Source: Candidatus Omnitrophota bacterium
Lineage (GTDB): Bacteria; Omnitrophota; Gorgyraeia; JABMRN01; RBG-13-46-9
Length of the DNA stretch: 63,288 nt
Assembly (NCBI GenBank): GCA_013203315.1
Contig: JABMQJ010000013.1
Location: forward strand, 1 to 63,288
Direction: 5' to 3'
The translations under genes were made by a program, and so were the position numbers. The first letter of the stretch is position 1. Each line of letters starts with the position of its first letter. The notes under the pieces were generated by a model. The model was not told the origin of the DNA and made no database searches. It worked only from the letters and a program-made list of their open reading frames with translations. Below, in pieces: positions 2,417-36,503 of the stretch.

Positions 2417-3223
2417 CTAAATACTTTCATCTTCAAGCCTGGCTTTTGCAAGCCAGATAGAAGTGATTTTATTCATTTTTTTAACTACTAAAGAAGAGAT
2501 GCGAGATAGCAAGTAGAGGCCCTTTAAGGAAAGATTTGGGTCGATTCTTTTCATTGAGCGCGTGTAACGACTTATAAGCGTGGCATCGCCGCCGGTTGCG
2601 ACGACTTTTATGTTTTTACCGACCTTTTTCTTGAATAAACCTATCATCCCTTCGCAGAGTGAAGCGTAGCCGTATATCATGCCGCCCCTTATGCTTGAGT
2701 GCGTGTCCTTACCTATAAAAGAGCGCGTCTTTTTGAGGTATGTTTTAGGAAGCATTGCCGTTCTCTCAGACAAGGATTCCAGGGACATCTTTATGCCGGG
2801 CACTATAAGCCCTCCTAAATATACGCTGCCCTTGGAAACAAAATCAAATGTAACGGCAGTCCCGAAGTCTATTACTAATATAGGTAAGCCGTAAGTTTGC
2901 TCGGCTGCAAAAGCTGTGATAAGCCTATCCTGGCCTATTTCTCTTTTATTATATCTGCACTTAAGCGGTACCTTTATATTGCGGCCTACTACAAGCACCT
3001 TCGTATTTTTGAAACTTTTCTTTAGGCCGCGCTCAAGTTTCTTTAGCGCTTTAGGCACTACGGAAACAATGATTATTTTATCTATTTTCTTTATTTTCCC
3101 GGCTTTATTAAGTGCTAAATTCAGATTTTGCGTAGGTACGGAAAATCTCTCTTTTATCCTGCCCCGCTTTTCTATTAATGCGAAATTTACGTTCGTATTT
3201 CCTATGTCTATTGCCAATAACAT
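2417..3223 (-). CDS. coaX: Type III pantothenate kinase
   Basis: LAIDIGNTN, GQDR, VIDFGTAVTFD, GGLIVPG, VVATGGDA motifs. Confidence 0.95.
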   Translation of the reverse strand: MLLAIDIGNTNVNFALIEKRGRIKERFSVPTQNLNLALNKAGKIKKIDKIIIVSVVPKALKKLERGLKKSFKNTKVLVVGRNIKVPLKCRYNKREIGQDRLITAFAAEQTYGLPILVIDFGTAVTFDFVSKGSVYLGGLIVPGIKMSLESLSERTAMLPKTYLKKTRSFIGKDTHSSIRGGMIYGYASLCEGMIGLFKKKVGKNIKVVATGGDATLISRYTRSMKRIDPNLSLKGLYLLSRISSLVVKKMNKITSIWLAKARLEDESI

Positions 3224-6180: not shown

Positions 6181-7037
6181 TAAACGATTTCGAGGCTCAT
6201 GTCGACCGATTCCACGGAGTCTGTAAGGGATCCTATCGAGATGCGATCGATGCCGGTCTTGGCGTATTCTTCTACGTTTTCAATATTGATTCCGCCTGAG
6301 GCCTCAAGTAGCGGCCTTTTAGCGGATGCTATCTTATTTCTTAGTTTGATGGCTTCTTTTATGTCTCCGGGTGTCATGTTGTCGAGCATGATGATTTCGG
6401 GACGTCCTGCTAATGCTGCTCCGAATTCTTCTAAGGTTTCGACTTCGATTTCTATTTTAATATTTTTTGTAACTTTTTTTCTGATGTCGCTTATTAAATT
6501 TTTTCGTGCGGATAAATTTCCCGCTTTTATATGATTGTCTTTTATGAGTGCCTGATCCCACAACCCAAACCTGTGATTATATCCACCGCCTACCGTTACG
6601 GCATATTTCTCCAGGTACCTAAGTAGGGGAAATGTTTTACGGGTGTCGTAAATTTTAACGCCGTATTTTTTTGCAACTTCGGCAAATCTTTTTACATTTG
6701 TTGCGATACCGCTTAAAAAGCATAAGAAATTAAGTATCGTTCTTTCGGCCGATAAAATAGCCCTGGCATGGCCTTCCAGAAAAACGATTTCCTTTCCTTC
6801 ATACACGCGCTGGCCGTCTTCGACCTGAGGCTTAAATCTCACGCTATAATCTATCGTATTTATGGCCCATTCGGCTACATCCATGCCGCACAGTATAAAA
6901 TCCTCATTCGCCACTATAGCGGCTTTTACACTCTCAAGTTTGTGGACGGTATTCATGGTGGTAACGTCACCCAGCCCGATATCCTCTTTAAGGGCTGCTT
7001 TTATTATTCTCTTTGTTCTTATTTTATCGAGTTTCAT
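6180..7037 (-). CDS. nadC: Nicotinate-nucleotide pyrophosphorylase (quinolinate phosphoribosyltransferase)
   Basis: [43 protein letters not shown]. Confidence 0.96.
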
Positions 7038-19929: not shown

Positions 19930-22900
19930 TTATATCGACTTCATGACATCCTTATGGCATCTCTGCCAGTCGGCAATGGTCTCGAAGAGGGTCTTCATTC
20001 GCAGTGCGTGTTTAAAGAGGTATTTGAATAGATCTTCTAAGCTATTAACGCCTTCAACGCTATTCTCAGCTATTTTGCTTAAGTGGTCTTTTATGTCTCT
20101 GATTCCGGATTGATCACCTGTATTGCGGCAATCTGCGATAAGGCGCGCTAATGCCCCGCGGTTAGCCAGGTCCGGATATTCGTAATCAGTGCATGCATCG
20201 GGGATGACAGTAACATTTGCCTCGTCTTGATATTTGCCATGTGACTTTCCTGCAAGTTGCGGGCCATCTTCCATTTCTGCAGCAAACGAGACGATATGCA
20301 TTTTAGTAAGTTTTTCTATTAAGCCTTCCATTTCTTCTTTGTGAGCTTTTCCTTGCTTTGCCAATTCGCTTATCTTATGTTGTAACTTATGCAATGTTTC
20401 CATTGCCCTATCCACGGCTTTCCAGTAATTTTCCTCTGTCTTCGCGGGATCGTCCGGATCTACTTCATATGGTATTACCTGATCTGTGTCCATTTCCCTA
20501 TGATAAGAAGAATCTTCCAGGATTCCGAAACCGGCCTTGGCTAAATCTTTGTTTAGATCCTTAATTGTCTGCATGACTCTATTATGTTCACCCATTCCCT
20601 TTGCCCCCTTAGGCACCGGAATCGGTACTATAGCCTTAACTATATCTCCTGCCCGGACAACCTTACTGTATCCGTCGATCGCAGCGCCTTTACGTGCTTC
20701 GACAGTGTCTGGTTTTGGCACACTTGGAGAAACGTCTGTCGGTTCCAAAGCTGTAACTTGTGGCGGCTCTGCAGCAGCAGGTTCATCCCTATAATCATTC
20801 CTACGGAATACTGTCAACATTCCGTTGTTACTTTTGAAGTAATCGAAATATTTTCCTATCTCGTCTCCATTTTCAAAAACTGCTCCGGGAAGCCCAGCCA
20901 CGGCAAAACAAGCCCCTGGCTTCATGCTTCTAAGATGTCCTAACAATTCCATGGCAAAGGGAACCCCGTCTTCTAATTTGTTTTTCGGTGTATCGGGAAA
21001 TGTAAAGTAGAAATAAATAACGTCATACGACGATACATCAGTATTTAAAACATCGGCTATCTCAAAGGTCAATTGCTCACCTGGAATTTCCGCTCTTTCA
21101 GCTATCATTTCGAGGTTTCCTCTTATATAAAGTTCTGTTTTTTCTTTTATTTCAATAGTGTGAACTCTAGCACCGGCTGTTGTGAAGAACGCAGCGGATT
21201 CCCCCCTTCCTGTCCCGATTTCAAGTACAGTTTTGCTTTCATCGATTCCCAGCATAGCAATAAAAGCTCTGATCCATTCCGGGTTTGAAGCTGCATATAT
21301 TCCACCTTTGACGTCAAATAGCGGACTCGGTGGCCTCTCTATCGCCTCAAGCTGTGGTATCATTTCAAGAATAGCGTTCCATTTATTCAGATCCGGAGTA
21401 ACATTAGTACTACCTATACCAGGCATGAGAAAGAGTTTGGGGATAGCCTTACCCTGGCCCCTCGCCGGTTCCGGACTTGCGGCGCGGGACACGTCTTCAA
21501 GCCGTCTGAACCATTCAAGAAATCTACGCGGGTTCTGTTCTTTTGAGAACGTCTTAAAATAGAGCTTCTGTTCTTCTCTGTCTCGCGGAAGTTCCACAGG
21601 TTCCAACCCTGCCCTTCGCCTCAGAATATTCATAATGTCCCAGCCTGTCCGCGTATTGCCGTCATAGAAAGGATGGATAACTTGGTGAAAAAGCCAGAAA
21701 GCGATCGCCGCGTGGGTTGAGGGATTTCCTAAGTCAATATCTTCCCACGAACTCTTATCGCTGATCCATTCGCCCAGTGAAGCGAAGGAACGCGGGTCTA
21801 CGCAAGTATCGTGCGGCAGGTTAATCCACTTTAGAAAATCGACGACCTGCTGAGAAATTACTTTATGATTATCAAACTGCGCTACTATGTTTCCGTCAAA
21901 ATCTTCAACTCCAATTGACGTTGAACGATATGGCGCAATCGGTAGCGCCAGTTCAAACGATAATATCTCCCTGACGGTACCATGTTCTGCAGTCCAGTAT
22001 AAATAACTTAGCTGTCGAATATCGATTTCGGTAATCGCTCTACTTGACTCAGCGAGTTCCGAGACAAAATCTCTGATAAGTTGGTAAAGTCGTTGCCACG
22101 TCTCTTCTACTCCTCCGGGCTTATAACCCGTGTTAATAGCTTCGGCGGCAGAGGTTTTTGTTACCCGGGATCTAAGTAAATCAACTAATCTACTTTTCGC
22201 AGATGCTCTTCTTACAAAGAAGTATCCGTATCGTCCCTCATTTCCGGGCTCTGTTGCTTCTGTGAACATGGCACCTGCATATCCGTTATTCGCAAGCAAA
22301 TATTGTACTACAAAAAATGCAAGACGGTAATGACCGGACGCAGTATGCGGAATCGGTATACCTGTTTGTGTTGCGCTAGGCGGTTTATGTTGCTCTGTTA
22401 TTTTATCAAATCCTGGCAATCCGGGAGCAAGGTCTCTTTTTCCTACCTGGCTTACTTTTTCGTCGTGTTCTAGAAGTATCTGGCGCTTAGCAATGTATAT
22501 ATAAAGATCTGCTGCAGCTTCGAAAAGCTCTTCTTCGTTCTCATACTGCCTGTTTGCGACGTCTAATATATTCATATCGGCTGGGAGTCGTTCGTTCAAG
22601 GAACGCAATCTTTCAGCGCGTATCGCAGCTGTATATTCAGGATTTCCATTGTCTCCTCTATATAGTTCATATAAATTTAAAAGTTTTTCCCACGTAAGTG
22701 GTTCAAACGGCAGCCTCGCTGCTTCTCTCGGTACTAATACATCATCATTGAAATGTTTGACTGCTTCCATAAAATATTCATTCTCTATCCCTACACTTAC
22801 CAATAGCTTTAAGCTGTCTAAGGGGCCTCTTGTATCTTGTGCAGCTTCTGCTCCTTCCCGGCTCTTCGCCGGTTCCTTGCTCGCGGTTATGCCGATGCCG

Positions 22901-25900
22901 GATATAGGAGAAATGTATTCTACTTCGATTTCTTCGGCTTTCTGCCAATATTCCTTGGCCTTTTCTAGTTGCTTTTCCTTTTTTATACGCTTCATGCGGT
23001 GCGCTCTTGCCTTATCTGATCTAGGAGGAGCAAATGGTACAGTTTTATTAAGCACATTAGATTCTTCCTGACATATATCTACAACATTTCTCCAGGCCAT
23101 TTTATGGGCTTTTGTAAAAAATCTCATTGCCTGTAAGTAACTAAAGCCACTTGAATCGTCTCCATCGCGCCAGTCGGACATTTTTTGTATATCCCACCCA
23201 TGGCGACGTTGCGCCTCATCTAAAGCAATCCTATACTCCTGTTCTTCATGCATGATTTCTAGTTCGACTTCGATTCTATCTCGTGGCAATTCCTTCGTCC
23301 CGGCAGCAACCCATATAATACCTTCGTTCTTGTTTCTTGCGGTAAAGCCGACGTGACCGGTGAAGGGTTGACCATTCACTTCGCCCAGTTTATCTACGGG
23401 AAGTTCTACTACCCATAATCTCTTAGCTTTTTTGCCTTCGCCAATTGTTATGTAATTACCTTGCGCAAGCTTCTCAATCGGTAACCACTTATCTTTTGGC
23501 ACATCATCACCGGATTTTCCTTGATTCTGGTACCACTCCTGAAATGCTTTATACTCCCGCGGTGTAATTCCTTTCGCTTCGGCAATAGCCTCTAAATTAT
23601 CGCCCAGCGTTTCAACTATGCAATCGTTAAGATTTCCCGCTCTTCTATGCGGTAGTATCCCTGCCTCTGAAACGCCAATGCCTCCTTCGTCGCTTTCCGG
23701 TATGTGCGCAGTGGGGTCCGGGACACCATATCTGCGCTGTAAGTCTAACACAAAAAGACGGCCTCGTTTTGTCTCCCTTTTTGCTTCTTCAACCATCATA
23801 TCAGCGCAATCGCTATAAAGAATGTTGACAAGCCTCTTTTCTCCCCGTGAATGAAGTGTAAAATATCTATATTGTCCGGTTTCTGCAACAGCACCGATAG
23901 ATGCGCTTAGAAGACCTCTGGCAATGCCCTTACCTTCATATCCTTTTCTAGTTGCTATACCAACTAGATAATATGCTTCTTCGGCATTTATAGACGTTAT
24001 ATATTTTTTCTTATCAGCCTTTCCTGGTTCTGCGCATGTTACGCATCCGACAATTTTTCCGTTAGCTCGGGCGATAAAAGTTACGGCTCGAGGATTCTTC
24101 ATAGTATTTATCATTCGATCTATCCATGGTCTCCCAAATGCAAAAGAGCTCCACAAAAGCTCCCTTAATTCCTCTTCATTAGTTGCATCTTTGATAGTTT
24201 CCATGGAAATTTCTACACCGCTTACCAAGGGTATTGTAGAAATTGGGGACGGTTCTGGTTTTTCGTCCTTCGCCGGTTCCTCGGCCGCAGCTTGCTCATT
24301 CATCTTACGCGCCTCTGTAGGCAGCATGTCTTCATCTAAGGGTGGTGCTCTCTCGCCGATGGCTTTCATTTCGGCATCGTCCTCTGCCTCGGCTCGAGTC
24401 ATTCCCTCAATTGCATTGATTTCAGCGAGGAGAAGATCGCGCTGTTCTGGTGACATATTTAGTTCACGGGTTCGCCTGCGCATGTAATCCCAATTTATCC
24501 CATCTGTCTTTTGTCTTTCTGACAGGTTAAGTTCTACTACAAAACCGTGGCGGTTTGTAGAATCTAACGATTCCTGAATACCTGCAACAGGTAATTCACT
24601 ATCGCCAAGGTCATATGCCAGGTAACATTTTCTGCCGCTTATATTTCTTTCATATAAATTTTGCTGCAATACAACACTTCGGTCTATATCATTGAAAAAA
24701 ACTGTTAAGAGCAGCAAATCTTCAAAGCTGGTGTGCCTTTCTAGGATTTCCCCATTACTATATGTGTCGGTAATTTTGGTAAGCGTTGTCCCGTCTTGTA
24801 ATACCCTTATTTCTGCCAAATTATCGAAACCGACCTCTTGCGCTCTCTTAAATACATCTATTTCATTATTAAGGCCTCTTTTACTCAAAATTCCGCTATC
24901 TTCGGCATTATATGCAAAAAATAGTTGTCCATCCGGAGCTTCGTAAATTTTAGCCAATATCGAAAGTGTATAAACATCTCTTGAGAGAACCCACCCATCA
25001 GGATATTCTGACAAACAATCCAAATCAACAGGATCAAACACATGAAGTTTCCCATCCGGCCCTAACTTAACAGCAGAACTGATATCGTGTGTGATATAAT
25101 TTCCTGGATCCGTAATATCATATGCATCGTCGCCCTCTTTTGACGACGGGCCGAGGATTGTTTCTCCCTTTTCGTCGCGGTGGAATTTCTTTAAAAGTGC
25201 TATGAAACGCTTTATGGGGGAAACGATGGGCCCTCCGTTTGCAATATATGTGCCAAAAGTAACAAGGCCACCCATGGCAATAAGTAAAGGAAGATTGACC
25301 GGCCAGTCACCTAAAATAGACCCTTCAAGAAGAACCAGCAGAATCGTTCCGGAGGCTGCAATAGGCGCAAGATGCGTAACACCGAAACCCTTTATCCCTT
25401 GAGCTTTATACATAAAGTAATAACTCAGTGGGAAAAGGATTGCCGTACCGAAAATAAGCAAAGGATGTAAAATGAGAGAAAAGGCGCTCGCGCCTGAGAG
25501 GTATAATACAAAAGTAACCGCAGCAAAAACTGTCGCTGCCAGTTTGTATCCATATTTTACCGTAAGCAATTGCGCTTGCGGGTTAGATTCTTCGGATTCA
25601 CGCTGCCGGCTAAAGAATGTTTTGTGGATTACCTGCCTTATTGCAAGTGAAAGAGCCGAAATTACTACGGCTACGATACCGATAATCGCTAGTCCCGGCA
25701 TTCCTGTGTTTGCCCCATTACTTAAGAAACTTACAACCGTCAGCACCCCGATTAGGGTAAGAGCATTTCCGATAAGTTTCCTGGGCGTTATGGATTCCTT
25801 AAGAATAAATCTGCCTAAAAGTAGTCCAAATATCACAGCCGCTTGAGAAGCGAAAGCGGCTGTTCTCACATTGACTAATGATAGCCCGAAATGAAAAGAT

Positions 25901-28900
25901 GCGCCGCATATAATATGCGCAAAAACCGAACCCCAGAAGACGAGCCTCTTATCTTTTACATCAAGTTTTTCATAGAATTCACGTTCAGGGGAAATGACAT
26001 CGCGAATACTTTTTCTTTCGCCTTTTTTGTCTTTCACCAAATAAGAAATAAGATAGGCAACGGACATCCAGACGCTTGCAAAAAACGCCAGGCTAAACAT
26101 GTATTGAACCGCCACTATCTCCTGCATGCTTCCACTGGCAACTTCAGGCATATAGGAACTCAAGACAATTTTGCTCAATACTATGCCTAATGAGGCTACT
26201 ATTACACCTATGGCGGCTAAGAAGGAACCCTTTAATCGCCCGTCTTGACCTTGAGACGGTTCTTGTTTTTCATCCCTCGCCGGTTCCGCGACCGCTGCCA
26301 TCCTGGCGCATGCCCCGACAAGAGGATCGTTTAAAATCGAAACCGCTAGATCAGGTTTACCTGAAACAGGTCGGAGATCTTTATAACTCGGACTTGTCGG
26401 CGATAACGGTTTAAACTTGTTTTTATCTTCGATCAACCGGCCAAATTCGACTTCCAGATTGCCGTTCTGATTACGAAAGACACGAGCAGCAATAGGTGTA
26501 GTCATATAACGTGGAACTATACCCGTTTCTACTATAGCAATTGTATTACTTGCGCTGACTCTTTGCGAATCAAACTCGCGCACAAACATATGATCGGGAT
26601 ATTTAATAATAGGGACACCGGTCACATCCAGATCGTTTACAATAGAATTTTTATCAAAAGATAAGCCTTCAGGGCCTTTTGTTGATCCCTCCACAAGCAT
26701 AGGCCATCCTCTCTTTATGCCTAACTTTAAGTTATATTGTCTATGGGTAAGCCAGTTTAGGAGAAGTGCTATTGGGCCTGTTATGGGCGCTAATGTATAT
26801 ACGGCTTCCAGATATGGCATGTTTGCAAGAAGCGCAGGTATAATAGGTACGCCCAGTACGGGAATAAGCATCGCTACCCATATGCCTAGTATGCCGAGGG
26901 ATCTATATAGGTAGTCCTTCCATGTCTTATTTTCATGCAAGAATAGGAACCATGGCAGGAAGGTTTGGGGGATTTCTCTCCAGGCTGCGTACTTGGCTAT
27001 AAAGAGTTTCTCTTCTCTTGTCAGATCTTCCCATGTTGTATCTTCTGTCTTACCCAGCTTCTTTAGAGCTTTTTTGAAGGTAGCTTTGGTGGTGAGGGGG
27101 GCTGGTGGCTGGGTGTCGTCGGTTTCTCCTCCGGTATCCGCTAACATAGAATCTATCGGGCTTGTTGTAAGCTTACCATCTACCTCGTCATAATATCGTA
27201 TCAGAAGTGATTGGAGTAGTTCCCTTATCTCTCCGCTTATTTTATCCGATTTGAGGGCATTAAACATTGTATCTACTGCGTATTCCCGAACGTCTTGAGA
27301 GATTTGGTCCCTTGAAGCGAAATTAAACAACTCCCTCGCGCATAATGCTCTTGCATCTTCAAGCGTGTCCGGATAATAAGCCATGATATACGCCAAGCTG
27401 TCCACAGCCTCTTTTGTAGCCTCGCTACGCAACAAATGCAACAAGCTCCTAATGGTAGCACCATCTACATCTTGTGTTTTTACGCCTAATGCAGCACCTT
27501 TAGTAACACGCTTTGATAGCCTCACCTTATAATAGTTAAGTAGTCTCACCGCCAATATAGTGACGAGAGCAATTGAGCCCGTAAATGCAACCGGCCAACC
27601 AATGGAACGCAACTCCGGTGGCATAATGATGAGCACCATTGCTAACGCTGAAATTACTGTCCACAGGGTTTTTCTTTTTGGGTCAAGACTACCTTCTTCA
27701 TCTTCATTAAAATCTCTTATAATACTTAGGACGATTCCTGCCAGGCCGAGAGTAAGGAAATTGGTTGGGGAGAGTCCGCCAGATGTATCGTCTTTAGCAG
27801 TAAGACCTGTTTTTTCAGAATACAAATCTTCGCCGTAAACAATGGGAAGTTCTGAAATTTCCACTCCAGCATTTCTTTCAGCAGCGAGAAGCCCTATAAT
27901 TTCGTTTGTATAGACATCTGCCTTACGGCAATATAAACATTCTTGCGGATCAATAGGTAGTAAATCACTTTGTTTTCTCTGCAATAAAACGGGTACCGTG
28001 TCGGTTTCCACATCTGTACCAGTAAATAATTCAAACTGTGGCTCTCTATTTGCAGGTTGTGATTTTGTTATACATGCATATACAGTGTCTGACCCAAAAG
28101 AATAAGCAACGCTTAGATTACCGGCAGCCACGGGGCAATTATGCATCTGTGGTAAAGATTCACGCGGTATTACATCACTCGCATTCAGCATTTCTTTTTG
28201 CATTATATATTGTGAAAATTTATCATCGAAAAATATAGAGACGCCGTTGATCTTTCCATTTTTTCTCTGATAATATGTTTTTTCCAGCACTTCCAAGATC
28301 GCGGTGTTATACTCGCCCTTGCCTTGGATAGCTGTAAAATTGACAAAGTCTATTCCTAAATCTTTTGCCAATAGAATAAAATCATCAACCTCTTGATAAT
28401 TCTGCTCACCTACAACAAAGCCCATTCCTATTCGTAACCGTGTTTCTCCTGCTAATGCACGCTCATTTCGTAGCTCTACGGATCTACGAATGGTTTCTAC
28501 AATTCTCCCATATCTATGTTCCATCTCTCTTCTTCCGGCACCTTCCAATTTTAACGCCCCAAATGTTTCCGGAGTTGCCGCATCAATTGAGAAGAAAAGT
28601 CTGTTTACTTTCAATACACACATTTCAATATCAGATTCACTCAAGAGTTCGCCGTTTGTATAAATCGAAAGATAAATGTCGGATCCTCTATTGCGTATTT
28701 CATCTACATAAAGTTGCAGGCTTTCATAGAATGGTTCGCCGCTTCCGCTAAGATTTATCTTTTTCACTCCCATTCCTATGAATTGGTCTATTACTTCAAT
28801 CCTTCTCTCCTCTCCGGCAATACTGATTGGAGGTCCTCCTTCAATAATTATCAACTCACCATCAGCAGTTAGTCTCGTAGCGTTGAAACAATGTGCACAT

Positions 28901-31900
28901 CTCAGAAGGCAAAATGAGCTAGGATGGATTTCCAAAACCTGAGGAACAATTTTTCCATCTAATATAGCCTGTATAGTTGACTGATCCTGACCCATGAATT
29001 CCCGAAACATGCTTAGTGCCCTGGGCCTTGCAGATTCGTATGATAAGAGATCTTGGAATTTTGGGGTATTTCTTAAAATAGCGTATATTTCTTTGATATC
29101 GCCAATCGTTAAATCTACACCATATACTTTACTAATATTTGATATTAATAATTGCGTGGGTTGTAGTGGATTTATAAGTAATTCTCTCAGAACATAAATA
29201 CAACTATGTGCAGTAGCTTCAGGTACATTTGTCTGCAATTCGTCTGTGATTAACCTAAGCGTCCGCACGTCGTGAGGGTTGTTAATTAAACTTGATCTAA
29301 GTTTTGATGCAGGATCTTTACGGGCGCTTCGTGTGATAATATAGTAAACTGCACCTACAGCCACTGCAACCAGCGCTATTGCCGCAGCTATCGTAGCGCC
29401 ATAGCTAAATAAGCCAACGATAGGTTCTCCTGCTGCTTGTGCGACTTGCCCAAGAGGTGCCTTTTCTAAACCAGCCGCAAATCCCGGCGTTGCGAGGGCA
29501 CCAAGAAGTATGATCGACAGAAGAATCATTGTGGATTTGTTGAAAAGTGTTTTTAAGGTTTTACCGAATTTGCTAATAGCTGCGGAGAGGATGGTTATGA
29601 GACGAGACCTTTGTTTACGTGAATCTGGGGCGATGAGTTCCGGAAATTCTTGCTCAGGGGCAAAGTCCGCGCTAAGTTCCGTAATCTTTTCTATAGTTCT
29701 TGCCACCCGTTCATATGGTATTCCTTCAGGGGTGGGGTACCCATCAATCTCTTCCGGAAGCCTTTCAATGCCCATCGCTTCTATGCTTGTCTTTAACCCT
29801 TCTAAATCAAAAGCAACAACATAGACTTTCCTGGTTCCGTCGGTTTCTTGCCGAACTACAACACCGATATTCTCGTAGATTGGCGCGTATATAAGCGGAA
29901 TATCTATTACCGGGTTTTGACGTTTTGCGTTCTCAAGCAGTCCTACCAAATTCTCGTCTCCCTTGTTACGTGCAATGCCTACAGCCTCATCTAGAGGAAT
30001 AGCTCTTTCTACGACATCCATAGGTTGATTCAAAACATTTCTCATTCTTGCAACCAACTTGTCATTATTAGCTAATGCGGCCATCTCTGCTTCGCTTTCT
30101 CCTATTATCATACAATTAAGCATGTGGCGTAACGGATGCATATAATAGACTCTGATAACGTAGTTTTTTACTAAAAATGTGACCTTCCCTCCAGCAGATT
30201 CCAAATCTTGAATAGCCGCACCAAATATATCTCGAACCATCTTCTTGGTGTCACTGGGCAGAATATGTGTACCAAAAGTTTTTTGGATATCGAGATATCT
30301 TTCAAGATCGTGAATAAAAACACTGAGATTTTTACGTGTTTTTATAGCGTCGCGCAAATAGTTATTTAAAAGTTCTCTTTCTGGTAATGATGCATTATCT
30401 ATGAGACTTTTTGCTTTTATCTCATTTTGTTTGCTAGATCTACGATGCCACCATCTCGCCATTACCCATATACCGCCGGCGGCGGCAAGAATTATACCTA
30501 TTATCTTGGCTATGTCTAACCCGGACCAAGCCCCTAGACCTGCCCCAGCATGCGGAAGTGCTTCACCTGCTGCAGCCGCAAATCCTGGTGCTGCGAGGAA
30601 GGTTAGGGTTATACCGATTGCTGCCAGGAAGAGGAGGGGAGTTGAAATATTCATAGACAAGGTACGACCGTCTTTAGCCTCTGCTGGTTTAGCTTTTTTG
30701 TCTGATTCAGTTTTGTCAGACTCTATAACTTCTTTCATAGCATCCATGTAGGCCTTTAAATGCAGATCGATAGGAAAATCCTTATGAACCCACCAGGGTA
30801 GGGCGCCGCTGTAGCCACGCCTTCTAGTATTCCTTAAGACATGTGAAAAAAGCGGTCTATTATACATATCAACCGGCTGATATTCTCCAACGATCACATC
30901 AACTTCAGGAGAGATATTAAGCCATTCCCTGCCTGCTTTATCAGAATCAAACCCCCGGAGTTCCTTGACGTCATCCCCTGTGTAATGAGGTTTTGTGTAA
31001 TAATGGAAGTTGGCCAAGTCTCCCGGCTCCATCAAATGTATCCAATATTTTAATGTCTCCCTGCTAACTGCACTGAAACTAACAGGTAAATTCGTCTGTT
31101 CCCGGATACTCGTGGCAACATCAGCTACAAAATCCTGCCTGAGCCACAAAGGCATGTGCCGGTATTCTCCTGTAACCGGATCAGTGAAGCCTACAAGATA
31201 TCTTTCGGCTCCTCCAGCCGCATTCTCATCAACGTCTGGTTCGTTCATAGGTTCGATAGCCCTTATTACATCCGAATATTGCTTCAAGATATTAAGTTCC
31301 GGTTCAATACTCATTAGAAAATTAGCCCGCTTTTTGCGATCCAGAAAAAGCTCGGGATGAGTTCTAGCCAGCAAATAATCAAATAATACGGGAACTCCTC
31401 GGATCTTGTATTTTCTTAAAAGTTCGCAATAAGCCCTGATATTTTTCTCGGCTACCTTATGATCTATAACGACTGTACCATCTTCTAAAACCTTAACTGA
31501 CTCAAGATTTGCAAATGTAAATCGCCTGTCCATAAATTTAAGGTCTTTCAGTCCTTTCATATCAGGAAACTTCCTTGCCAGTGCATTCCTCATAGCGGCA
31601 AGGGCCCTAAACTCCTTTTCGACAAGTACGCCTGCAGTCCCTGCAAATCCGTCCCTTTCATCCGTAAATACCTTTGAATATGTCTCGGGACTGGTATATC
31701 CTCCAGTGCCTAAATACCTTAAGAAATCGATAGTACTCGGTTTTTTTACTTGGACAGGCTTCTTACGTAGAAGTTCGGTTTTAATCGGCTCAGGTTCGGA
31801 TTCTACCGGTGGATTTTTTATCACCGGTTCTTTTCCTGTAACTTCTAATTTGTGTATTTTAAGCTTGCCTCTAAAGCGGGTTCCTTTTTCTACATCAGAG

Positions 31901-34900
31901 CAAAAGCCTACCTCAATACGCACCCAACTTGCATGTTCACCCGTAAACCCCTTACCGGTCCAGGCCTTGCCGTCAGGAGACGCTGACGGATGAAATTCCA
32001 TGGTTATTTTTTGTCCTTTTTTAACGTTTATATTTTTAGGTAAATCCATCTGCCCGCCATTAACAGCGCTCCAGACCCCAATCTTAAATTCCATTAATGG
32101 TACATCTTCGAACCCTTTATCCGGTATTACTTCAAAAGTAACCTTGAAACCACCATCTCTCATGTCAAAGCGATGTTTTACTAAATGACTGCCATGTTCC
32201 GTAAGTCCATCTATCGATGTATCTTTAGAAGGAAAGGCGGCATATTCCACGTCAATACCAAAACCTCCGTGCCCATCTCCGTCGTCCTCTGTTTTTGCCA
32301 AATCAAGCTCGGCCGCTACTTTACCGTCTTCCCTATCCCAGCCTATTTCTCTTATACCTTTACCATATGAATTGTAACCCGCCATCCAGCTAACAGACTT
32401 ATGCAGATCATATACTGTTATATTAAGCTTTGGATCTACTGATTTCCTATCGGGTTCCGCTATCATCCTAAAACGATCATCTTTACCTGCTAAAATCCGA
32501 GGATGTTCTTCTGCGCTTATTTTAGTTCCTCTTTCTACACTTTCCCACACTGCGCCTGTCTTACGATCCTTAATACGCGTATAAGAAGCATCGTCCGTAG
32601 TTTTAGTCTTATCTGCCGCGATGGATCTTTCTTTGGGTAAAAATATTGAGGCAATACCCGCACCAGCGATACGAAGAAATCCTCTTCTGCCTATTGATCT
32701 CCACCAAGGTTCCTTGCTGGAGGCCGGGGACGGTTCACCTTTTGTCGACGCCCACACATCATCATCTTTTCGCAGGCTTTCTGCGCTAATGTCGGATGCT
32801 GAAGTTAATTTAGCAATAGCATTAGAAATCGCCTTTTTTTGTGCTTTTCTGTCGCGGGCATAACTCGCTAAGGTAAGCTCCTTATTTAATTCACGTATCG
32901 CTGACTGCAATTGGGCAGGATTTGCTGTATTAAAGAGTTCATTTATTCGGCTGCTTCCTGCATCGTTACAGCCGACATCTTCAAACAACCTGCAAAGCAA
33001 TATAATCGGGATATCTAGTCCTGGACGCAATAGTAATTTTGCCTTTAGCTCTCGCGCATACTCCCATTTCTTATAGTTCGCAAGTGCGATTATGCGGGAC
33101 AAATCGCAAGTTTCCTTCCCCAGTATCCATCCCAATATAGTGCATTCGAGAGTGCTAAACGCAAATTCAAGTGACAAAAGACCTGTAGAAATTAAAATTA
33201 CGTACATATAAATTGCATGATTTCCTGACAATATCTCTTTCGCGGCGGGTATTCCTAAATACAATAACAAACCTGAAACAACTAGTGTTGCCAACGGTCC
33301 GCCGGATCCTATTAGAATACCTTTTAAACCTCTATCTTTTATAGGCGGGTCAAACTCCTTATTTCTATATGTATCGAGTATTCGCTTTATTGTAAGTCTA
33401 TTTCCACCAAAGAAACTGGATATAGGGTGTAGCAGGATGTACACAAATATATGACCTGATTCGTGAACAAAAATATCAAGTGCTAAAATAGCTGTAAGAA
33501 TACCTGCCAAACTTTTTCTTATAAAACGGGTAGAATTCCATGCAATCATAGGCGAAACAGGTGTCATTTGTATAGAATCCGGGGACGCCTCCTTCGCCAT
33601 AGCGGCTATGGGGTAAGGTTCTTTGACTTCGGCTGGTGTTGCAACAAGATCCGCGAGTATAATGTCAGCGCCTTCAGCATCTCTTTGACCGGTAGGTTGT
33701 TTATATATGCCTGCTGTTAGTGTGAGGCCTTCGGTTTCTTCGGTATATGTGTAATATGGGTTTTCAGGTATATCACTTGGAGATATGACTATATCCCAGC
33801 CTATCAGGGTTCCTATGGTAAATGGCTTATTGCTAAATACTGCCGCCAATATTTGGGCCTTTAGTGAAACTTGATTCCTATCTTTTATATCAACAACACC
33901 CATTTGAGAGAATAAGCTACTAATGGCAAGAGCAGAGTGCTGGGTGGTATACGATATGGCTTTATTTAGAAACTTGTCTAATTTAGTTTCTTTTCCCGCT
34001 AAGAGACTAAAATACGGAGATTCGTAGCCTTTTTTAGTCTTGAAGTTTGGTAGTATGCCAATGTAGGAGATGTTGTTTCGCTTGAAGAGTTTTGCAAGAT
34101 TGCCTGAGTGAAAACCACCGGTTATGAGAATGGCCGTATCTTTTAGTTTTATATTCTTTAAAAAGGCTTCGTCACGCTTAAATGTGCACTCGTAACATTC
34201 AGCCATGTTTTTGACATGGCGGTCGAGCTCTTGCATGTTCTCATCGGGCCTTGCGGTTATCCTGTAAAGAGGCGCCTCTTTTTCTATGAACGCGGTGAAA
34301 TTCTTTATGCGGAATGAGTCTTTGTTTTCTTTGTAGTACCGGTAGTCATCGTTTGTTATGGCCAGATTAAACATGCCCCGTATTAAAGTGAAGTTTTTAT
34401 GTAAAGCGCTAAGCTCTCTTTGCTTATCGTTTGTTAGGAGGGCTGCTTTGACCACGTCTTTTAAGCTATCTATTTCTTTCATTATTTTGGATTTATCGAT
34501 AGCCTTGTATTTTGAGGAGCAGGAAATGTATTTTTGGAACTGGGGGAACCGGTTTAGGTTTATGCCTACTGATTTTGCCTTCTCGAAAAGATAGGCATGG
34601 AAGTCGTATTGTGATATCTTCTTAGTTTTGAACTGGACTGTCTTTAAAATAATCTCTTCAAGCGCCCGTTTGGAAAGTATCTTCTGGAATTCGTCTATCA
34701 GTTTCTTTCGTTCCCTCGTTACCTCTTTGAAATCCATACCATCTTCCTGTCCGAAAGACTCTTCCAGGAGGTATATGTTGGGGAAGGCTTCGGTATCTAT
34801 ATTCTCTTCTTTCGCAGTCTTTATGAGGTAGGAAAGATAGTCTTTGAAGCCAAAAGTGTTTTCCCGGTAGTTTACGTAGTTTTCGTCAAATTCGAGAAGT

Positions 34901-35589
34901 TCTTTTGAGTATATGTTGCGGCGCAGGTTATTCAGAACATGCTCAAGAGACTTCAGGTATTTATCGATTGCGTCTTTGTGCTTTAGGGAGTTTTTCGTTA
35001 GCTTAAGGTTTTCGAGATAAAGCTTCGTATTCTCTATGCCCCAGAGGCTTGCTTTATCGGGGTTATTTATGGCGAAGTACTCACCGCCGTTTACGATACC
35101 CTCTTTTACGAAGTAATCGGCTACTTTCTCTCTTATGCGCCCATCAGCGATTCCGGTAAATACCGAAAGGTCATACGCGCCTTTCCCACCCTCAAGATTG
35201 ATCGAGCTTATGCCGTACTCTTCACTGAGATGCTCGATTATGTCGTTTATCTTGTGCTGGGCAAAATAGTTACAGTGCGCATCCTGGATGTGGATTACTG
35301 TTTTCCCCGAATTGGCGTTATCGATGCTTCGTATGTGGGCAAGCTCTTCTGGCAGGTCAAATGACTCGACATCTAATGCGTTAATAGAACCCGGGCCGGC
35401 AGGCCTATTAGAACTGGTACTCGACAGTTCTAACGGTGTTCTGCTGGCCCAGGCTTTTTCCAAAAGGAATTCTCCGCTAATATTAGTAAACAAAAAGGAC
35501 CAAAGAGTAATAAAAGCTATTACCCTAATTGGTCCTTTAAACCTGCAAATATAATTATGATCTTGATTATTAAATCGAGTACGTAACAT
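19930..35589 (-). CDS. Giant 5219-aa multi-module membrane protein (ChaN-like, M50-like, CBM-like plus GH-A hydrolase, radical SAM, EamA, kinase-like, GNAT, Fic x2, SAM-methyltransferase)
   Basis: Uninterrupted 15.66 kb ORF with GGGAG RBS; recognisable motifs HESGH, RRGFLR, NEP/GEY, CLLRCAHC, GYEGKGIA, HPFYDGNTR, VLEIGTGRG. Confidence 0.93.
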   Translation of the reverse strand: MLRTRFNNQDHNYICRFKGPIRVIAFITLWSFLFTNISGEFLLEKAWASRTPLELSSTSSNRPAGPGSINALDVESFDLPEELAHIRSIDNANSGKTVIHIQDAHCNYFAQHKINDIIEHLSEEYGISSINLEGGKGAYDLSVFTGIADGRIREKVADYFVKEGIVNGGEYFAINNPDKASLWGIENTKLYLENLKLTKNSLKHKDAIDKYLKSLEHVLNNLRRNIYSKELLEFDENYVNYRENTFGFKDYLSYLIKTAKEENIDTEAFPNIYLLEESFGQEDGMDFKEVTRERKKLIDEFQKILSKRALEEIILKTVQFKTKKISQYDFHAYLFEKAKSVGINLNRFPQFQKYISCSSKYKAIDKSKIMKEIDSLKDVVKAALLTNDKQRELSALHKNFTLIRGMFNLAITNDDYRYYKENKDSFRIKNFTAFIEKEAPLYRITARPDENMQELDRHVKNMAECYECTFKRDEAFLKNIKLKDTAILITGGFHSGNLAKLFKRNNISYIGILPNFKTKKGYESPYFSLLAGKETKLDKFLNKAISYTTQHSALAISSLFSQMGVVDIKDRNQVSLKAQILAAVFSNKPFTIGTLIGWDIVISPSDIPENPYYTYTEETEGLTLTAGIYKQPTGQRDAEGADIILADLVATPAEVKEPYPIAAMAKEASPDSIQMTPVSPMIAWNSTRFIRKSLAGILTAILALDIFVHESGHIFVYILLHPISSFFGGNRLTIKRILDTYRNKEFDPPIKDRGLKGILIGSGGPLATLVVSGLLLYLGIPAAKEILSGNHAIYMYVILISTGLLSLEFAFSTLECTILGWILGKETCDLSRIIALANYKKWEYARELKAKLLLRPGLDIPIILLCRLFEDVGCNDAGSSRINELFNTANPAQLQSAIRELNKELTLASYARDRKAQKKAISNAIAKLTSASDISAESLRKDDDVWASTKGEPSPASSKEPWWRSIGRRGFLRIAGAGIASIFLPKERSIAADKTKTTDDASYTRIKDRKTGAVWESVERGTKISAEEHPRILAGKDDRFRMIAEPDRKSVDPKLNITVYDLHKSVSWMAGYNSYGKGIREIGWDREDGKVAAELDLAKTEDDGDGHGGFGIDVEYAAFPSKDTSIDGLTEHGSHLVKHRFDMRDGGFKVTFEVIPDKGFEDVPLMEFKIGVWSAVNGGQMDLPKNINVKKGQKITMEFHPSASPDGKAWTGKGFTGEHASWVRIEVGFCSDVEKGTRFRGKLKIHKLEVTGKEPVIKNPPVESEPEPIKTELLRKKPVQVKKPSTIDFLRYLGTGGYTSPETYSKVFTDERDGFAGTAGVLVEKEFRALAAMRNALARKFPDMKGLKDLKFMDRRFTFANLESVKVLEDGTVVIDHKVAEKNIRAYCELLRKYKIRGVPVLFDYLLARTHPELFLDRKKRANFLMSIEPELNILKQYSDVIRAIEPMNEPDVDENAAGGAERYLVGFTDPVTGEYRHMPLWLRQDFVADVATSIREQTNLPVSFSAVSRETLKYWIHLMEPGDLANFHYYTKPHYTGDDVKELRGFDSDKAGREWLNISPEVDVIVGEYQPVDMYNRPLFSHVLRNTRRRGYSGALPWWVHKDFPIDLHLKAYMDAMKEVIESDKTESDKKAKPAEAKDGRTLSMNISTPLLFLAAIGITLTFLAAPGFAAAAGEALPHAGAGLGAWSGLDIAKIIGIILAAAGGIWVMARWWHRRSSKQNEIKAKSLIDNASLPERELLNNYLRDAIKTRKNLSVFIHDLERYLDIQKTFGTHILPSDTKKMVRDIFGAAIQDLESAGGKVTFLVKNYVIRVYYMHPLRHMLNCMIIGESEAEMAALANNDKLVARMRNVLNQPMDVVERAIPLDEAVGIARNKGDENLVGLLENAKRQNPVIDIPLIYAPIYENIGVVVRQETDGTRKVYVVAFDLEGLKTSIEAMGIERLPEEIDGYPTPEGIPYERVARTIEKITELSADFAPEQEFPELIAPDSRKQRSRLITILSAAISKFGKTLKTLFNKSTMILLSIILLGALATPGFAAGLEKAPLGQVAQAAGEPIVGLFSYGATIAAAIALVAVAVGAVYYIITRSARKDPASKLRSSLINNPHDVRTLRLITDELQTNVPEATAHSCIYVLRELLINPLQPTQLLISNISKVYGVDLTIGDIKEIYAILRNTPKFQDLLSYESARPRALSMFREFMGQDQSTIQAILDGKIVPQVLEIHPSSFCLLRCAHCFNATRLTADGELIIIEGGPPISIAGEERRIEVIDQFIGMGVKKINLSGSGEPFYESLQLYVDEIRNRGSDIYLSIYTNGELLSESDIEMCVLKVNRLFFSIDAATPETFGALKLEGAGRREMEHRYGRIVETIRRSVELRNERALAGETRLRIGMGFVVGEQNYQEVDDFILLAKDLGIDFVNFTAIQGKGEYNTAILEVLEKTYYQRKNGKINGVSIFFDDKFSQYIMQKEMLNASDVIPRESLPQMHNCPVAAGNLSVAYSFGSDTVYACITKSQPANREPQFELFTGTDVETDTVPVLLQRKQSDLLPIDPQECLYCRKADVYTNEIIGLLAAERNAGVEISELPIVYGEDLYSEKTGLTAKDDTSGGLSPTNFLTLGLAGIVLSIIRDFNEDEEGSLDPKRKTLWTVISALAMVLIIMPPELRSIGWPVAFTGSIALVTILAVRLLNYYKVRLSKRVTKGAALGVKTQDVDGATIRSLLHLLRSEATKEAVDSLAYIMAYYPDTLEDARALCARELFNFASRDQISQDVREYAVDTMFNALKSDKISGEIRELLQSLLIRYYDEVDGKLTTSPIDSMLADTGGETDDTQPPAPLTTKATFKKALKKLGKTEDTTWEDLTREEKLFIAKYAAWREIPQTFLPWFLFLHENKTWKDYLYRSLGILGIWVAMLIPVLGVPIIPALLANMPYLEAVYTLAPITGPIALLLNWLTHRQYNLKLGIKRGWPMLVEGSTKGPEGLSFDKNSIVNDLDVTGVPIIKYPDHMFVREFDSQRVSASNTIAIVETGIVPRYMTTPIAARVFRNQNGNLEVEFGRLIEDKNKFKPLSPTSPSYKDLRPVSGKPDLAVSILNDPLVGACARMAAVAEPARDEKQEPSQGQDGRLKGSFLAAIGVIVASLGIVLSKIVLSSYMPEVASGSMQEIVAVQYMFSLAFFASVWMSVAYLISYLVKDKKGERKSIRDVISPEREFYEKLDVKDKRLVFWGSVFAHIICGASFHFGLSLVNVRTAAFASQAAVIFGLLLGRFILKESITPRKLIGNALTLIGVLTVVSFLSNGANTGMPGLAIIGIVAVVISALSLAIRQVIHKTFFSRQRESEESNPQAQLLTVKYGYKLAATVFAAVTFVLYLSGASAFSLILHPLLIFGTAILFPLSYYFMYKAQGIKGFGVTHLAPIAASGTILLVLLEGSILGDWPVNLPLLIAMGGLVTFGTYIANGGPIVSPIKRFIALLKKFHRDEKGETILGPSSKEGDDAYDITDPGNYITHDISSAVKLGPDGKLHVFDPVDLDCLSEYPDGWVLSRDVYTLSILAKIYEAPDGQLFFAYNAEDSGILSKRGLNNEIDVFKRAQEVGFDNLAEIRVLQDGTTLTKITDTYSNGEILERHTSFEDLLLLTVFFNDIDRSVVLQQNLYERNISGRKCYLAYDLGDSELPVAGIQESLDSTNRHGFVVELNLSERQKTDGINWDYMRRRTRELNMSPEQRDLLLAEINAIEGMTRAEAEDDAEMKAIGERAPPLDEDMLPTEARKMNEQAAAEEPAKDEKPEPSPISTIPLVSGVEISMETIKDATNEEELRELLWSSFAFGRPWIDRMINTMKNPRAVTFIARANGKIVGCVTCAEPGKADKKKYITSINAEEAYYLVGIATRKGYEGKGIARGLLSASIGAVAETGQYRYFTLHSRGEKRLVNILYSDCADMMVEEAKRETKRGRLFVLDLQRRYGVPDPTAHIPESDEGGIGVSEAGILPHRRAGNLNDCIVETLGDNLEAIAEAKGITPREYKAFQEWYQNQGKSGDDVPKDKWLPIEKLAQGNYITIGEGKKAKRLWVVELPVDKLGEVNGQPFTGHVGFTARNKNEGIIWVAAGTKELPRDRIEVELEIMHEEQEYRIALDEAQRRHGWDIQKMSDWRDGDDSSGFSYLQAMRFFTKAHKMAWRNVVDICQEESNVLNKTVPFAPPRSDKARAHRMKRIKKEKQLEKAKEYWQKAEEIEVEYISPISGIGITASKEPAKSREGAEAAQDTRGPLDSLKLLVSVGIENEYFMEAVKHFNDDVLVPREAARLPFEPLTWEKLLNLYELYRGDNGNPEYTAAIRAERLRSLNERLPADMNILDVANRQYENEEELFEAAADLYIYIAKRQILLEHDEKVSQVGKRDLAPGLPGFDKITEQHKPPSATQTGIPIPHTASGHYRLAFFVVQYLLANNGYAGAMFTEATEPGNEGRYGYFFVRRASAKSRLVDLLRSRVTKTSAAEAINTGYKPGGVEETWQRLYQLIRDFVSELAESSRAITEIDIRQLSYLYWTAEHGTVREILSFELALPIAPYRSTSIGVEDFDGNIVAQFDNHKVISQQVVDFLKWINLPHDTCVDPRSFASLGEWISDKSSWEDIDLGNPSTHAAIAFWLFHQVIHPFYDGNTRTGWDIMNILRRRAGLEPVELPRDREEQKLYFKTFSKEQNPRRFLEWFRRLEDVSRAASPEPARGQGKAIPKLFLMPGIGSTNVTPDLNKWNAILEMIPQLEAIERPPSPLFDVKGGIYAASNPEWIRAFIAMLGIDESKTVLEIGTGRGESAAFFTTAGARVHTIEIKEKTELYIRGNLEMIAERAEIPGEQLTFEIADVLNTDVSSYDVIYFYFTFPDTPKNKLEDGVPFAMELLGHLRSMKPGACFAVAGLPGAVFENGDEIGKYFDYFKSNNGMLTVFRRNDYRDEPAAAEPPQVTALEPTDVSPSVPKPDTVEARKGAAIDGYSKVVRAGDIVKAIVPIPVPKGAKGMGEHNRVMQTIKDLNKDLAKAGFGILEDSSYHREMDTDQVIPYEVDPDDPAKTEENYWKAVDRAMETLHKLQHKISELAKQGKAHKEEMEGLIEKLTKMHIVSFAAEMEDGPQLAGKSHGKYQDEANVTVIPDACTDYEYPDLANRGALARLIADCRNTGDQSGIRDIKDHLSKIAENSVEGVNSLEDLFKYLFKHALRMKTLFETIADWQRCHKDVMKSI

Positions 35590-35766
35590 TATTTAATAAT
35601 CTCCCAACTTTTTGAAAACTTTAAATAAGCGGGTAAAAAAATACACCCTGCCGAGTACATATATTCAGAGTATTATTTATTTTGCCCTATATAATATAAT
35701 AATACTATTATATGCAAAATAATTCACAAAATAGGCTAAATTTTGTATATTCCTAACATTGGGGAC

Positions 35767-35797
35767 AAAAAAAGAGGAATATAAAACTTTATATTCC
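35767..35797 (-). terminator. Rho-independent terminator upstream of the giant gene
   Basis: ggaatataaa/tttatattcc stem (35776-35797) followed on the minus strand by TC and a T7 tract. Confidence 0.7.
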
Positions 35798-35834
35798 CCC
35801 CAAAAGCCGCTTTTCTTGTGCTGGCTTTATATAT

Positions 35835-35954
35835 TTATTTGACTATGAATCTCTTTTCCAGAAGGCTAAGTTTCTTATCGACGAAGTGAATCTTCACCAG
35901 GGCAATAAGGAACAGGGCCATGTGCATTATGCTCTTGTAATGTTCTATATGCAT
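35835..35954 (-). CDS. Unannotated 39-aa small protein MHIEHYKSIMHMALFLIALVKIHFVDKKLSLLEKRFIVK
   Basis: GAGGAG 8 nt before ATG, overlaps the stop of the upstream gene, one hydrophobic stretch, terminator downstream. Confidence 0.55.
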   Translation of the reverse strand: MHIEHYKSIMHMALFLIALVKIHFVDKKLSLLEKRFIVK

Positions 35955-36322
35955 TTTGCTGACTCCTCATTTTTTATGTTTATTTTTATCGTGTGCACGA
36001 ACACGATGTTATATATAGATACATCTGCTACTATGTAGAAAGTTCCCCTCATCTTGCATATCAGTTTATCCTCTTTCTTTGCAGATGAGCATTTCCTCAA
36101 AATATGGAAGAACTTCTTGTCTTTTGCGCCATTCTTCTTCCTTATATGTATCCACTCCGCAAGTTCCTTTTTGGATTTTACTTTATGGATCTCGCGGACA
36201 AAATACATGGACCTTTTTTTCGTTGTGGAAATTATACCGTTTCGGTGGACAATTTCCTCAAGAGAGATGTCCCTTTTCTTAGAGGGAATAGCAGTTAAGT
36301 TCTTAAATATTAACTCTCTCAT
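35945..36322 (-). CDS. Basic hypothetical protein (125 aa)
   Basis: ORF with AAAGGA RBS and its own consensus promoter; no family recognised. Confidence 0.7.
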   Translation of the reverse strand: MRELIFKNLTAIPSKKRDISLEEIVHRNGIISTTKKRSMYFVREIHKVKSKKELAEWIHIRKKNGAKDKKFFHILRKCSSAKKEDKLICKMRGTFYIVADVSIYNIVFVHTIKINIKNEESAKCI

Positions 36323-36431
36323 CTTGTCCGTCCTTTCAGGACTTATTAAAGCTTTTTAATTAGTGCAATTAAAAAATGCCCCTTAATTCTACGCAGACTA
36401 CAGGGCTCGTTTAACGTCTCATTCAACCATT

Positions 36432-36460
36432 AGTATACCTGACTACTTTAATGGTGTCAA
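36432..36460 (-). promoter_or_regulatory. Near-consensus sigma70 promoter
   Basis: TTGACA-17 nt-TATACT; overlapped by inverted repeat CCATTA-N16-TAATGG (36427-36454). Confidence 0.8.
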
Positions 36461-36503
36461 GAGCAGGCATCTAGCTTTTTTATAACCTAACATTAGGCCC
36501 TTT

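Follow-up and report, generated by a model that had tools for sequence, protein, structure and literature searches.

A conserved Tat-type leader peptide in the interior of a giant Omnitrophota protein, directly before a predicted glycosidase module

Background

In bacterial proteins targeted jointly by the general secretory (Sec) and the twin-arginine translocation (Tat) pathways, the Tat consensus immediately precedes a weakly hydrophobic helix with a positive insertion energy, this helix being the final one of the protein (Tooke et al. 2017, PMC5449189). Positive charges after that helix make Sec abort its insertion, which results in release and hand-over to Tat (PMC5449189). Here, I describe a leader of Tat type located far inside a modular membrane protein of 5,219 amino acids (aa) from a Candidatus Omnitrophota bacterium (GenBank assembly GCA_013203315.1, contig JABMQJ010000013.1, positions 1 to 63,288; this whole stretch of 63,288 nucleotides (nt) is called the window below). 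The protein is encoded by a single open reading frame (ORF) of 15,660 nt on the minus strand (19930..35589), and the leader directly precedes a module that resembles a carbohydrate-binding module (CBM) joined to a glycoside hydrolase (GH) of family GH5.

For the giant proteins of Omnitrophota, post-translational cleavage has been proposed from the presence of peptidase domains, and topology predictions for such proteins have been called unreliable (bioRxiv 10.1101/2023.11.21.568195). Neither that study nor a second one (10.64898/2026.06.07.730766) mentions Tat or internal twin-arginine leaders; likewise, a literature search returned nothing usable on Tat in Omnitrophota, and no earlier report of internal Tat signals in giant proteins.

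Results

The leader WWRSIGRRGFLRIAGAGIASIFLPKERSIAA comprises residues 962-992 (window 32614..32706, minus strand) and is followed by D993-K994. An earlier sequence-only reading of the window had placed it at 32614-32705, with the correct start and an end one base short, and had described a textbook RRxFL motif with h-region and Ala-rich cleavage region some 970 residues into the protein. This description holds: the twin arginines are R968-R969 of 5,219, within GRRGFLR (967-973), and G-R-R-G-F-L-R corresponds to the twin-arginine consensus (S/T)-R-R-x-F-L-K. It is the protein's sole RRxFL-type site with a hydrophobic stretch after it. Read from the sequence, residues 962-992 are best described as the leader of a cassette made of leader, CBM-like beta-sandwich and GH5-like barrel, which lies in frame and without a start codon of its own in the giant protein. 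The parts of the leader, and the segment behind it, are as follows.

32671..32706, minus strand: n-region WWRSIGRRGFLR, residues 962-973, with R968-R969 at 32683..32688
32635..32670, minus strand: h-region IAGAGIASIFLP, residues 974-985, a Gly/Ala-rich run of 12 uncharged residues
32614..32634, minus strand: c-region KERSIAA, a basic segment covering residues 986-992, as seen in the sequence itself
32347..32613, minus strand: spacer between leader and beta-sandwich, residues 993-1081, of low confidence in the AlphaFold2 (AF2) model

A weakly hydrophobic h-region, a basic c-region and a small-x-small site are all present, the length of the h-region being at the short limit. The 15 residues upstream of the h-region carry a charge of +5/-1, and K986, R988, K994 and K996 follow it, in the c-region and at the start of the putative mature part. 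Cleavage by a signal peptidase between IAA and DK would be possible. By its sequence the leader is of Tat type; a role in Tat export would conflict with the membrane layout of the uncut protein.

The sequence-only reading had put a CBM-GH unit after the leader, which is confirmed at the level of the structural model (AF2, region 941-1640, built on five homologues).

31831..32346, minus strand: predicted CBM-like beta-sandwich, residues 1082-1253 (AF2 model, Foldseek)
30691..31737, minus strand: predicted GH5-like (beta/alpha)8 barrel, residues 1285-1633 (AF2, Foldseek), with acid/base E1450 (NEP) and nucleophile E1569 (GEYQP)

In Foldseek searches the best matches of the barrel are GH5 beta-mannanases (E ~1e-9, template-modelling score TM(target) ~0.6), and the arrangement of the two domains resembles that of CBM-glycosidase enzymes. 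Both catalytic glutamates, E1450 of NEP and E1569 of GE(Y/F)QP, are invariant across the five homologous sequences. As modelled, beta-sandwich and barrel make up an extracellular-type CBM plus a GH5 fold. The first 141 modelled residues, leader included, are disordered. Residues 941-1640 match no Pfam family at E<=0.01, Cellulase-type profiles included, and no PDB sequence at E<=1; neither a cofactor motif nor a cofactor-binding family was found in the glycosidase cargo.

An exhaustive search of 1.84 billion representatives recovered 14 non-self relatives of the module, all but one of them within giant proteins (~1,000-7,000 aa). The exception, P0015, is a free-standing relative of 340 aa with a Sec-type signal anchor; the 1.84 billion representatives yielded none that stands alone and has a Tat leader. 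All three informative homologous modules, each in another giant and 28-36% identical to the module of the window, carry a leader directly before the module. P0003 is uninformative in this respect, because its gene starts 73 nt from the contig end.

P0004, directly before the module: leader MDKGRRRFLVMTAVLFVTAAAPPFAG, with RRRFL, beginning MDKGRRRFL
P0005, directly before the module: leader KKRNTLFIFGAVGAASLMPGFAG, with KKRN, i.e. KR
P0002, directly before the module: leader GRRGPEDSRYMKWVLPAAKQAANFVIPLNLASACA, with GRRG...MKWVLPAAKQAANFVIPLNLASACA and a Met start, MKWVLPAAK

G-R-R is kept in three of the four cassettes, namely that of the window and those of P0004 and P0002. The occurrence of leaders at the same place in all three informative modules therefore points to an inherited and maintained cassette leader rather than to noise. 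The sequence-only reading had made conservation of the motif in homologous modules one of its conditions: the position of the leader is indeed conserved, whereas the RR itself is not found in all of them (KR in P0005). In hydrophobicity the leaders of P0004 and P0005 suffice for Sec, and both end in P(P/G)FAGKL, related to the PGFA ends of two hairpin helices of the window's protein (see below).

Searches of other collections added little. A genome collection yielded one locus only, from an Omnitrophota metagenome-assembled genome (MAG); its module is 38% identical, and it shares the N-terminal domain. Scanning JGI metagenomes with the module alignment gave no confirmed relative, and a word-indexed protein search with a 700-aa fragment and with a five-sequence alignment gave no match, from an index that misses even the window's own protein and seemingly all very long ones.

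Two side observations concern the company in which the module is found. P0002, P0004 and P0005 each also bear a processive-type glycosyltransferase family 2 (GT2) domain with flanking helices, and a GT2 beside a CBM-GH5 module hints at a role in polysaccharide synthesis and trimming; the window's giant has no GT2, but an EamA transporter domain. In P0009 (7,255 aa), at residues ~6830-6860, GRRGFTLVESLIL contains a prepilin-type GFTLxE motif directly after the GH module; here too, a sorting signal of N-terminal type lies deep within a giant.

Upstream of the leader, the protein is composed of four parts.

35473..35523, minus strand: N-terminal signal-anchor, residues 23-39, with basic n-region and the end KAWA/S
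33523..35457, minus strand: N-terminal domain, residues 45-689, with motifs VIHIQDAHCNY and ITGGFH
33145..33522, minus strand: membrane region by hydropathy, residues 690-815, with 3-4 hydrophobic segments (693-807)
32707..33144, minus strand: soluble stretch rich in Lys and Arg, residues 816-961, whose end GEPSPASSKEP is linker-like

The giants P0002, P0005 and P0008, of unrelated length, begin with the same N-terminal signal-anchor and share the VIHIQDAHCNY/ITGGFH domain, and residues 45-689 match no Pfam family. The soluble stretch 816-961 is probably cytoplasmic. A linker copy directly before the leader, as claimed by the sequence-only reading, is roughly what is seen, since GEPSPASSKEP resembles the EPA[KR]/EPSP motifs at 3102, 3771, 4239, 4707 and 4936. 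This short motif stands at module borders (952 and the five positions just given), and its recurrence suggests that modules are joined via a common linker. Within the membrane region, which ends ~150 residues upstream of the leader, HESGH (711-715) lies in a hydrophobic helix and GSGGPLATLVV in the next one, recalling M50/site-2 intramembrane metalloproteases. This identity is a hint only and is not established: Pfam Peptidase_M50 gives E=9, and the single-sequence AF2 model is unusable (predicted local distance difference test (pLDDT) 47).

The leader has over 4,200 residues behind it, with some 20 more hydrophobic segments in them. The landmarks that matter for topology are three.

30457..30663, minus strand: first in-out-in hairpin, residues 1643-1711, by hydropathy and the positive-inside rule, with flanks of +5 before and +5 after
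29332..29535, minus strand: second hairpin, built like the first, residues 2019-2086, by hydropathy and the positive-inside rule
28465..28923, minus strand: radical SAM domain, residues 2223-2375, a cytoplasm-type enzyme

Two further probable hairpins lie at 2641-2681 and 2897-2949. Radical SAM, GNAT, Fic and methyltransferase domains, enzymes which use cytoplasmic cofactors, are located between and after the hairpins, and the EamA-type multi-helix transporter domain (a Pfam match) is also downstream. In the hairpins 1643-1711 and 2019-2086, helix 1 resembles a cleavable Sec signal peptide with Met start and PGFA/A end; in both it is followed by a loop of 20-25 residues, helix 2, and an Arg/Lys cluster (RWWHRRSSK in the first).

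The giant ORF is placed between plsY and gpsA, a pair of commonly adjacent genes into which it appears inserted, among minus-strand housekeeping genes which in the window include der, plsY, lepA, lepB, gpsA, hom and thrC. The gene is found in 100% identical assembly in two independent public Logan samples, and the contig is present in the runs SRR28106066 and SRR28106059. Upstream of it is an AT-rich gap of ~900 nt (35590-36503) in which two short genes were called (125 and 39 aa), both without a family match.

Discussion

The best explanation overall, in which belief and doubt are about evenly balanced, is that a conserved Tat-type cassette leader is maintained as an export signal and that the chain is cut after the glycosidase. 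Oriented N-in/C-out, the leader would direct export of the glycosidase unit. Sec would skip this leader, the poorest candidate for Sec integration in the protein; the Tat translocase, if the genome has one, would recognise it once the module is folded; and a signal peptidase would then remove it. A break in the polypeptide would fall after the glycosidase and before about residue 1643, so that the giant would be processed like a polyprotein, a step which I purely infer. Export of the glycosidase requires such a downstream cut because two strongly hydrophobic in-out-in hairpins and cytoplasm-type enzymes follow.

A number of observations speak against this explanation. Some concern the leader itself: PF10518 (TAT_signal), the only Pfam family matching the 52-aa leader fragment (E=0.04), aligns with IGRRGFLRIAGAGIASIF (residues 966-983) at 14.3 bits, below its cut-off of 22.7 bits, and TIGR01409 gives no match at E<=10; the signal is not at the N-terminus of a precursor, its RR being at 968-969 of 5,219; and the RR is not universal, with KR in P0005 and an RR 9 residues away from the hydrophobic core in P0002. 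Others concern the machinery. No tatA or tatC was found in the window or in two further loci, L003 and L004 (tblastn E<=1, with E. coli TatA/TatC queries), a negative that covers ~100 kb in all, with 63 kb of this genome, and says nothing of its remainder; a scan of all ORFs in these three for N-terminal Tat signals brought up spurious antisense ORFs and one strongly hydrophobic anchor of Sec type, and no ordinary substrate. Finally, there is the topology, which was derived by hand from hydropathy and the positive-inside rule rather than by a trained predictor. In the uncut chain, the glycosidase by parity shares its side of the membrane with the radical SAM, GNAT, Fic and methyltransferase domains. 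The three-helix clusters that flank the module of P0004 on both sides point the same way, with the same parity conflict, and in P0005 a normally cytoplasmic FHA domain comes after the module with no intervening hydrophobic segment. As for the cut, neither a cleavage site nor a protease able to sever the chain came to light in this analysis.

The main rival, which on balance I regard as rather unlikely, is that the leader is vestigial: the cassette would once have been exported separately, and now the leader would be idle, with the CBM-GH5 unit on the cytoplasmic face together with the other modules. This would be the simplest topology, since the membrane elements further on are all in-out-in hairpins and the rest of the recognised domains belong to the cytoplasm type; the position of the P0005 module on the same side as its FHA domain agrees with it. 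So do the shortness of the h-region, only 12 residues, to which AF2 assigns no helix (pLDDT ~26), and the report that 46% of long Omnitrophota proteins are predicted with their bulk on the cytoplasmic face (10.64898/2026.06.07.730766). However, a leader without function should decay, whereas GRR, hydrophobic core and small-residue end persist here while the modules have diverged to 28-36% identity; the catalytic residues of the cargo are kept; and both the fold type of the cargo and its only free-standing relative, the signal-anchored P0015, are extracytoplasmic. The sequence-only reading had offered, as one of its two options, the fossil N-terminus of a captured gene. Part of this survives, for the leader belongs to the module and the leaders of P0004 and P0002 begin with Met. 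The word fossil is doubtful, because a useless leader of 30 residues would not have kept those three elements over such divergence. A recent acquisition of the module by horizontal transfer finds no support in base composition, as GC content and GC at third codon positions (GC3) of leader, CBM and GH match those of other modules.

A more general proposal may be formulated: giants of this type would be polyproteins whose modules keep Sec- or Tat-type leaders, the precursor being cut on the cytoplasmic side and the folded CBM-GH5 piece, until then the middle of a chain of 5,219 residues, being exported post-translationally by Tat. I consider it quite improbable as it stands. If true, it would be a route of membrane-protein biogenesis undescribed for bacteria.

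Alternatively, the segment could be an ordinary transmembrane helix inserted by Sec/YidC, its arginines being merely positive-inside residues. RR within 8 residues upstream is seen at 8 of the 132 hydrophobic stretches of 15 giants (6%), and the hydrophobicity of the P0004 and P0005 leaders is compatible with Sec. Yet the segment offers only 12 uncharged residues, between R973 and K986, and on the Hessa scale its crude insertion sum of +7.7 kcal/mol is the worst among the 14 hydrophobic segments of the protein, the other 13 ranging from -1.3 to +6.8 (all are position-independent sums). Moreover, no neighbouring helix is found within 150 residues upstream or 650 downstream, and the parity problem would be the same as for export. 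An ordinary helix thus seems a poor prospect.

A literal hand-over of the Rieske type in the intact chain of 5,219 residues, with only the glycosidase exported, is very improbable. The sequence-only reading had given this idea as one of its two options, with actinobacterial Rieske proteins as precedent. Four of the six features of such hand-over are present: Sec-type helices upstream (23-39, 693-807), the RR consensus, low hydrophobicity (+7.7 kcal/mol) and C-terminal positive charges (K986, R988, K994). The other two fail: further transmembrane segments come after the leader segment, and a cofactor motif is missing from the cargo; in addition, parity conflicts arise in an uncut chain. There is no return helix between residue 993 and the hairpin 1643-1711, so that a glycosidase exported from the intact chain would entail that the radical SAM domain and the later enzymes land outside the cell; the hand-worked topology excludes this version. 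The small subunits of E. coli hydrogenase and formate dehydrogenase are tail-anchored Tat substrates. Tat can indeed deliver cargo bearing one C-terminal membrane helix (PMC10924467). That solution does not fit here, because a two-helix in-out-in hairpin follows the cargo.

Equally hard to credit is a translation start inside the giant ORF from which a Tat precursor would be made as a protein of its own. The only in-frame ATG, GTG or TTG within residues 900-975 is the following.

32755..32757, minus strand: GTG at residue 945, 23 codons before the RR

No Shine-Dalgarno sequence precedes it, whereas most genes of the window have sites of the AGGAG/GGAGG type, and none precedes the other internal leader-like Met codons of this giant ORF; the sequence-only statement that the leader has no start codon is upheld to that extent, and internal initiation in this window was rejected on these grounds. 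Relatives offer the idea some support: the leader of P0004 begins with Met, albeit with a weak sequence upstream, and GGAGG lies 11 nt before the leader Met inside the ORF of P0002 (L003, Omnitrophota MAG JBDRBG010000075.1, nt ~9820-9862). This GGAGG could be a working internal ribosome-binding site or the relic of a former gene start.

Chance resemblance without biological meaning, to which the sub-threshold hidden Markov model score of PF10518 and the expectation of 0.30 relaxed motifs (RR.[FLIVMGA][LIVMF]) per composition-shuffled protein would lend themselves, is scarcely to be believed, given that a shuffled protein should contain the strict form (RR.FL[KR] followed by >=12 uncharged residues) just 0.0009 times on average (20,000 shuffles), that the motif sits exactly at the module border ahead of export-type cargo, and that homologues carry equivalent leaders with GRR. 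Only two RRxFL sites occur among the 132 hydrophobic stretches of the 15 giants, both directly preceding this CBM-GH module. Taken by itself the leader motif is suggestive, of weak significance; it is because of position and conservation, and not of the motif alone, that it may be regarded as more than chance.

Such giants confront bacteria with the task of making and placing proteins of thousands of residues, which have dozens of membrane crossings and combine enzymes of outside and inside type. According to both studies of Omnitrophota giant genes, predicted topologies are unreliable and cleavage is no more than suspected, and a conserved internal leader provides a concrete, short and testable handle. 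If the leader is maintained for export, a cleavage product starting at D993 is predicted; Sec-Tat cooperation would then extend from C-terminal cargo to internal modules, and the view of giant genes as encoding polyproteins would be supported. If export fails, the locus would document a leader kept, though idle, where genes were fused.

Comparison with known systems

With canonical N-terminal Tat signal peptides (PF10518, TIGR01409; S/T-R-R-x-F-L-K) the leader shares GRRGFLR, the Gly/Ala-rich h-region, the basic c-region and an AxA-like end. It departs from them in being internal and without a start codon, in scoring under the thresholds of the curated models, and in having an h-region of only 12 residues. 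The cargo, for its part, is akin to GH5 (clan GH-A) beta-mannanases and endoglucanases with an N-terminal CBM, having the same order of beta-sandwich and triosephosphate isomerase (TIM) barrel and the NEP and GE(Y/F)QP motifs; unlike these enzymes, it lacks any Pfam or PDB sequence match and is met almost solely inside giant proteins.

As a whole, the protein is comparable to the giant or very long membrane proteins of Omnitrophota, which are likewise multi-modular, with many transmembrane segments, ambiguous topology, and domains of the carbohydrate-active enzyme (CAZyme) type mixed with those of the cytoplasm type. At 5,219 aa it belongs to the small end of their range, far below the 'giant genes' of >30,000 aa (bioRxiv 10.1101/2023.11.21.568195).

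A close parallel for the leader in its setting is found in the dual Sec-Tat proteins, namely the actinobacterial Rieske protein Sco2149/QcrA, Sco3746, polyferredoxins and YkuE-like proteins (PMC3471235; PMC5449189), which also have an internal RR after Sec-type helices, a weak segment, and positive charges after it. In the known cases no helix ever follows the Tat-dependent one, and a cofactor-containing domain at the C-terminus forms the cargo, whereas the cargo in the window is an internal glycosidase free of cofactor. The aspect that appears new is, then, a putatively Sec-avoiding, Tat-type leader placed before internal rather than C-terminal cargo.

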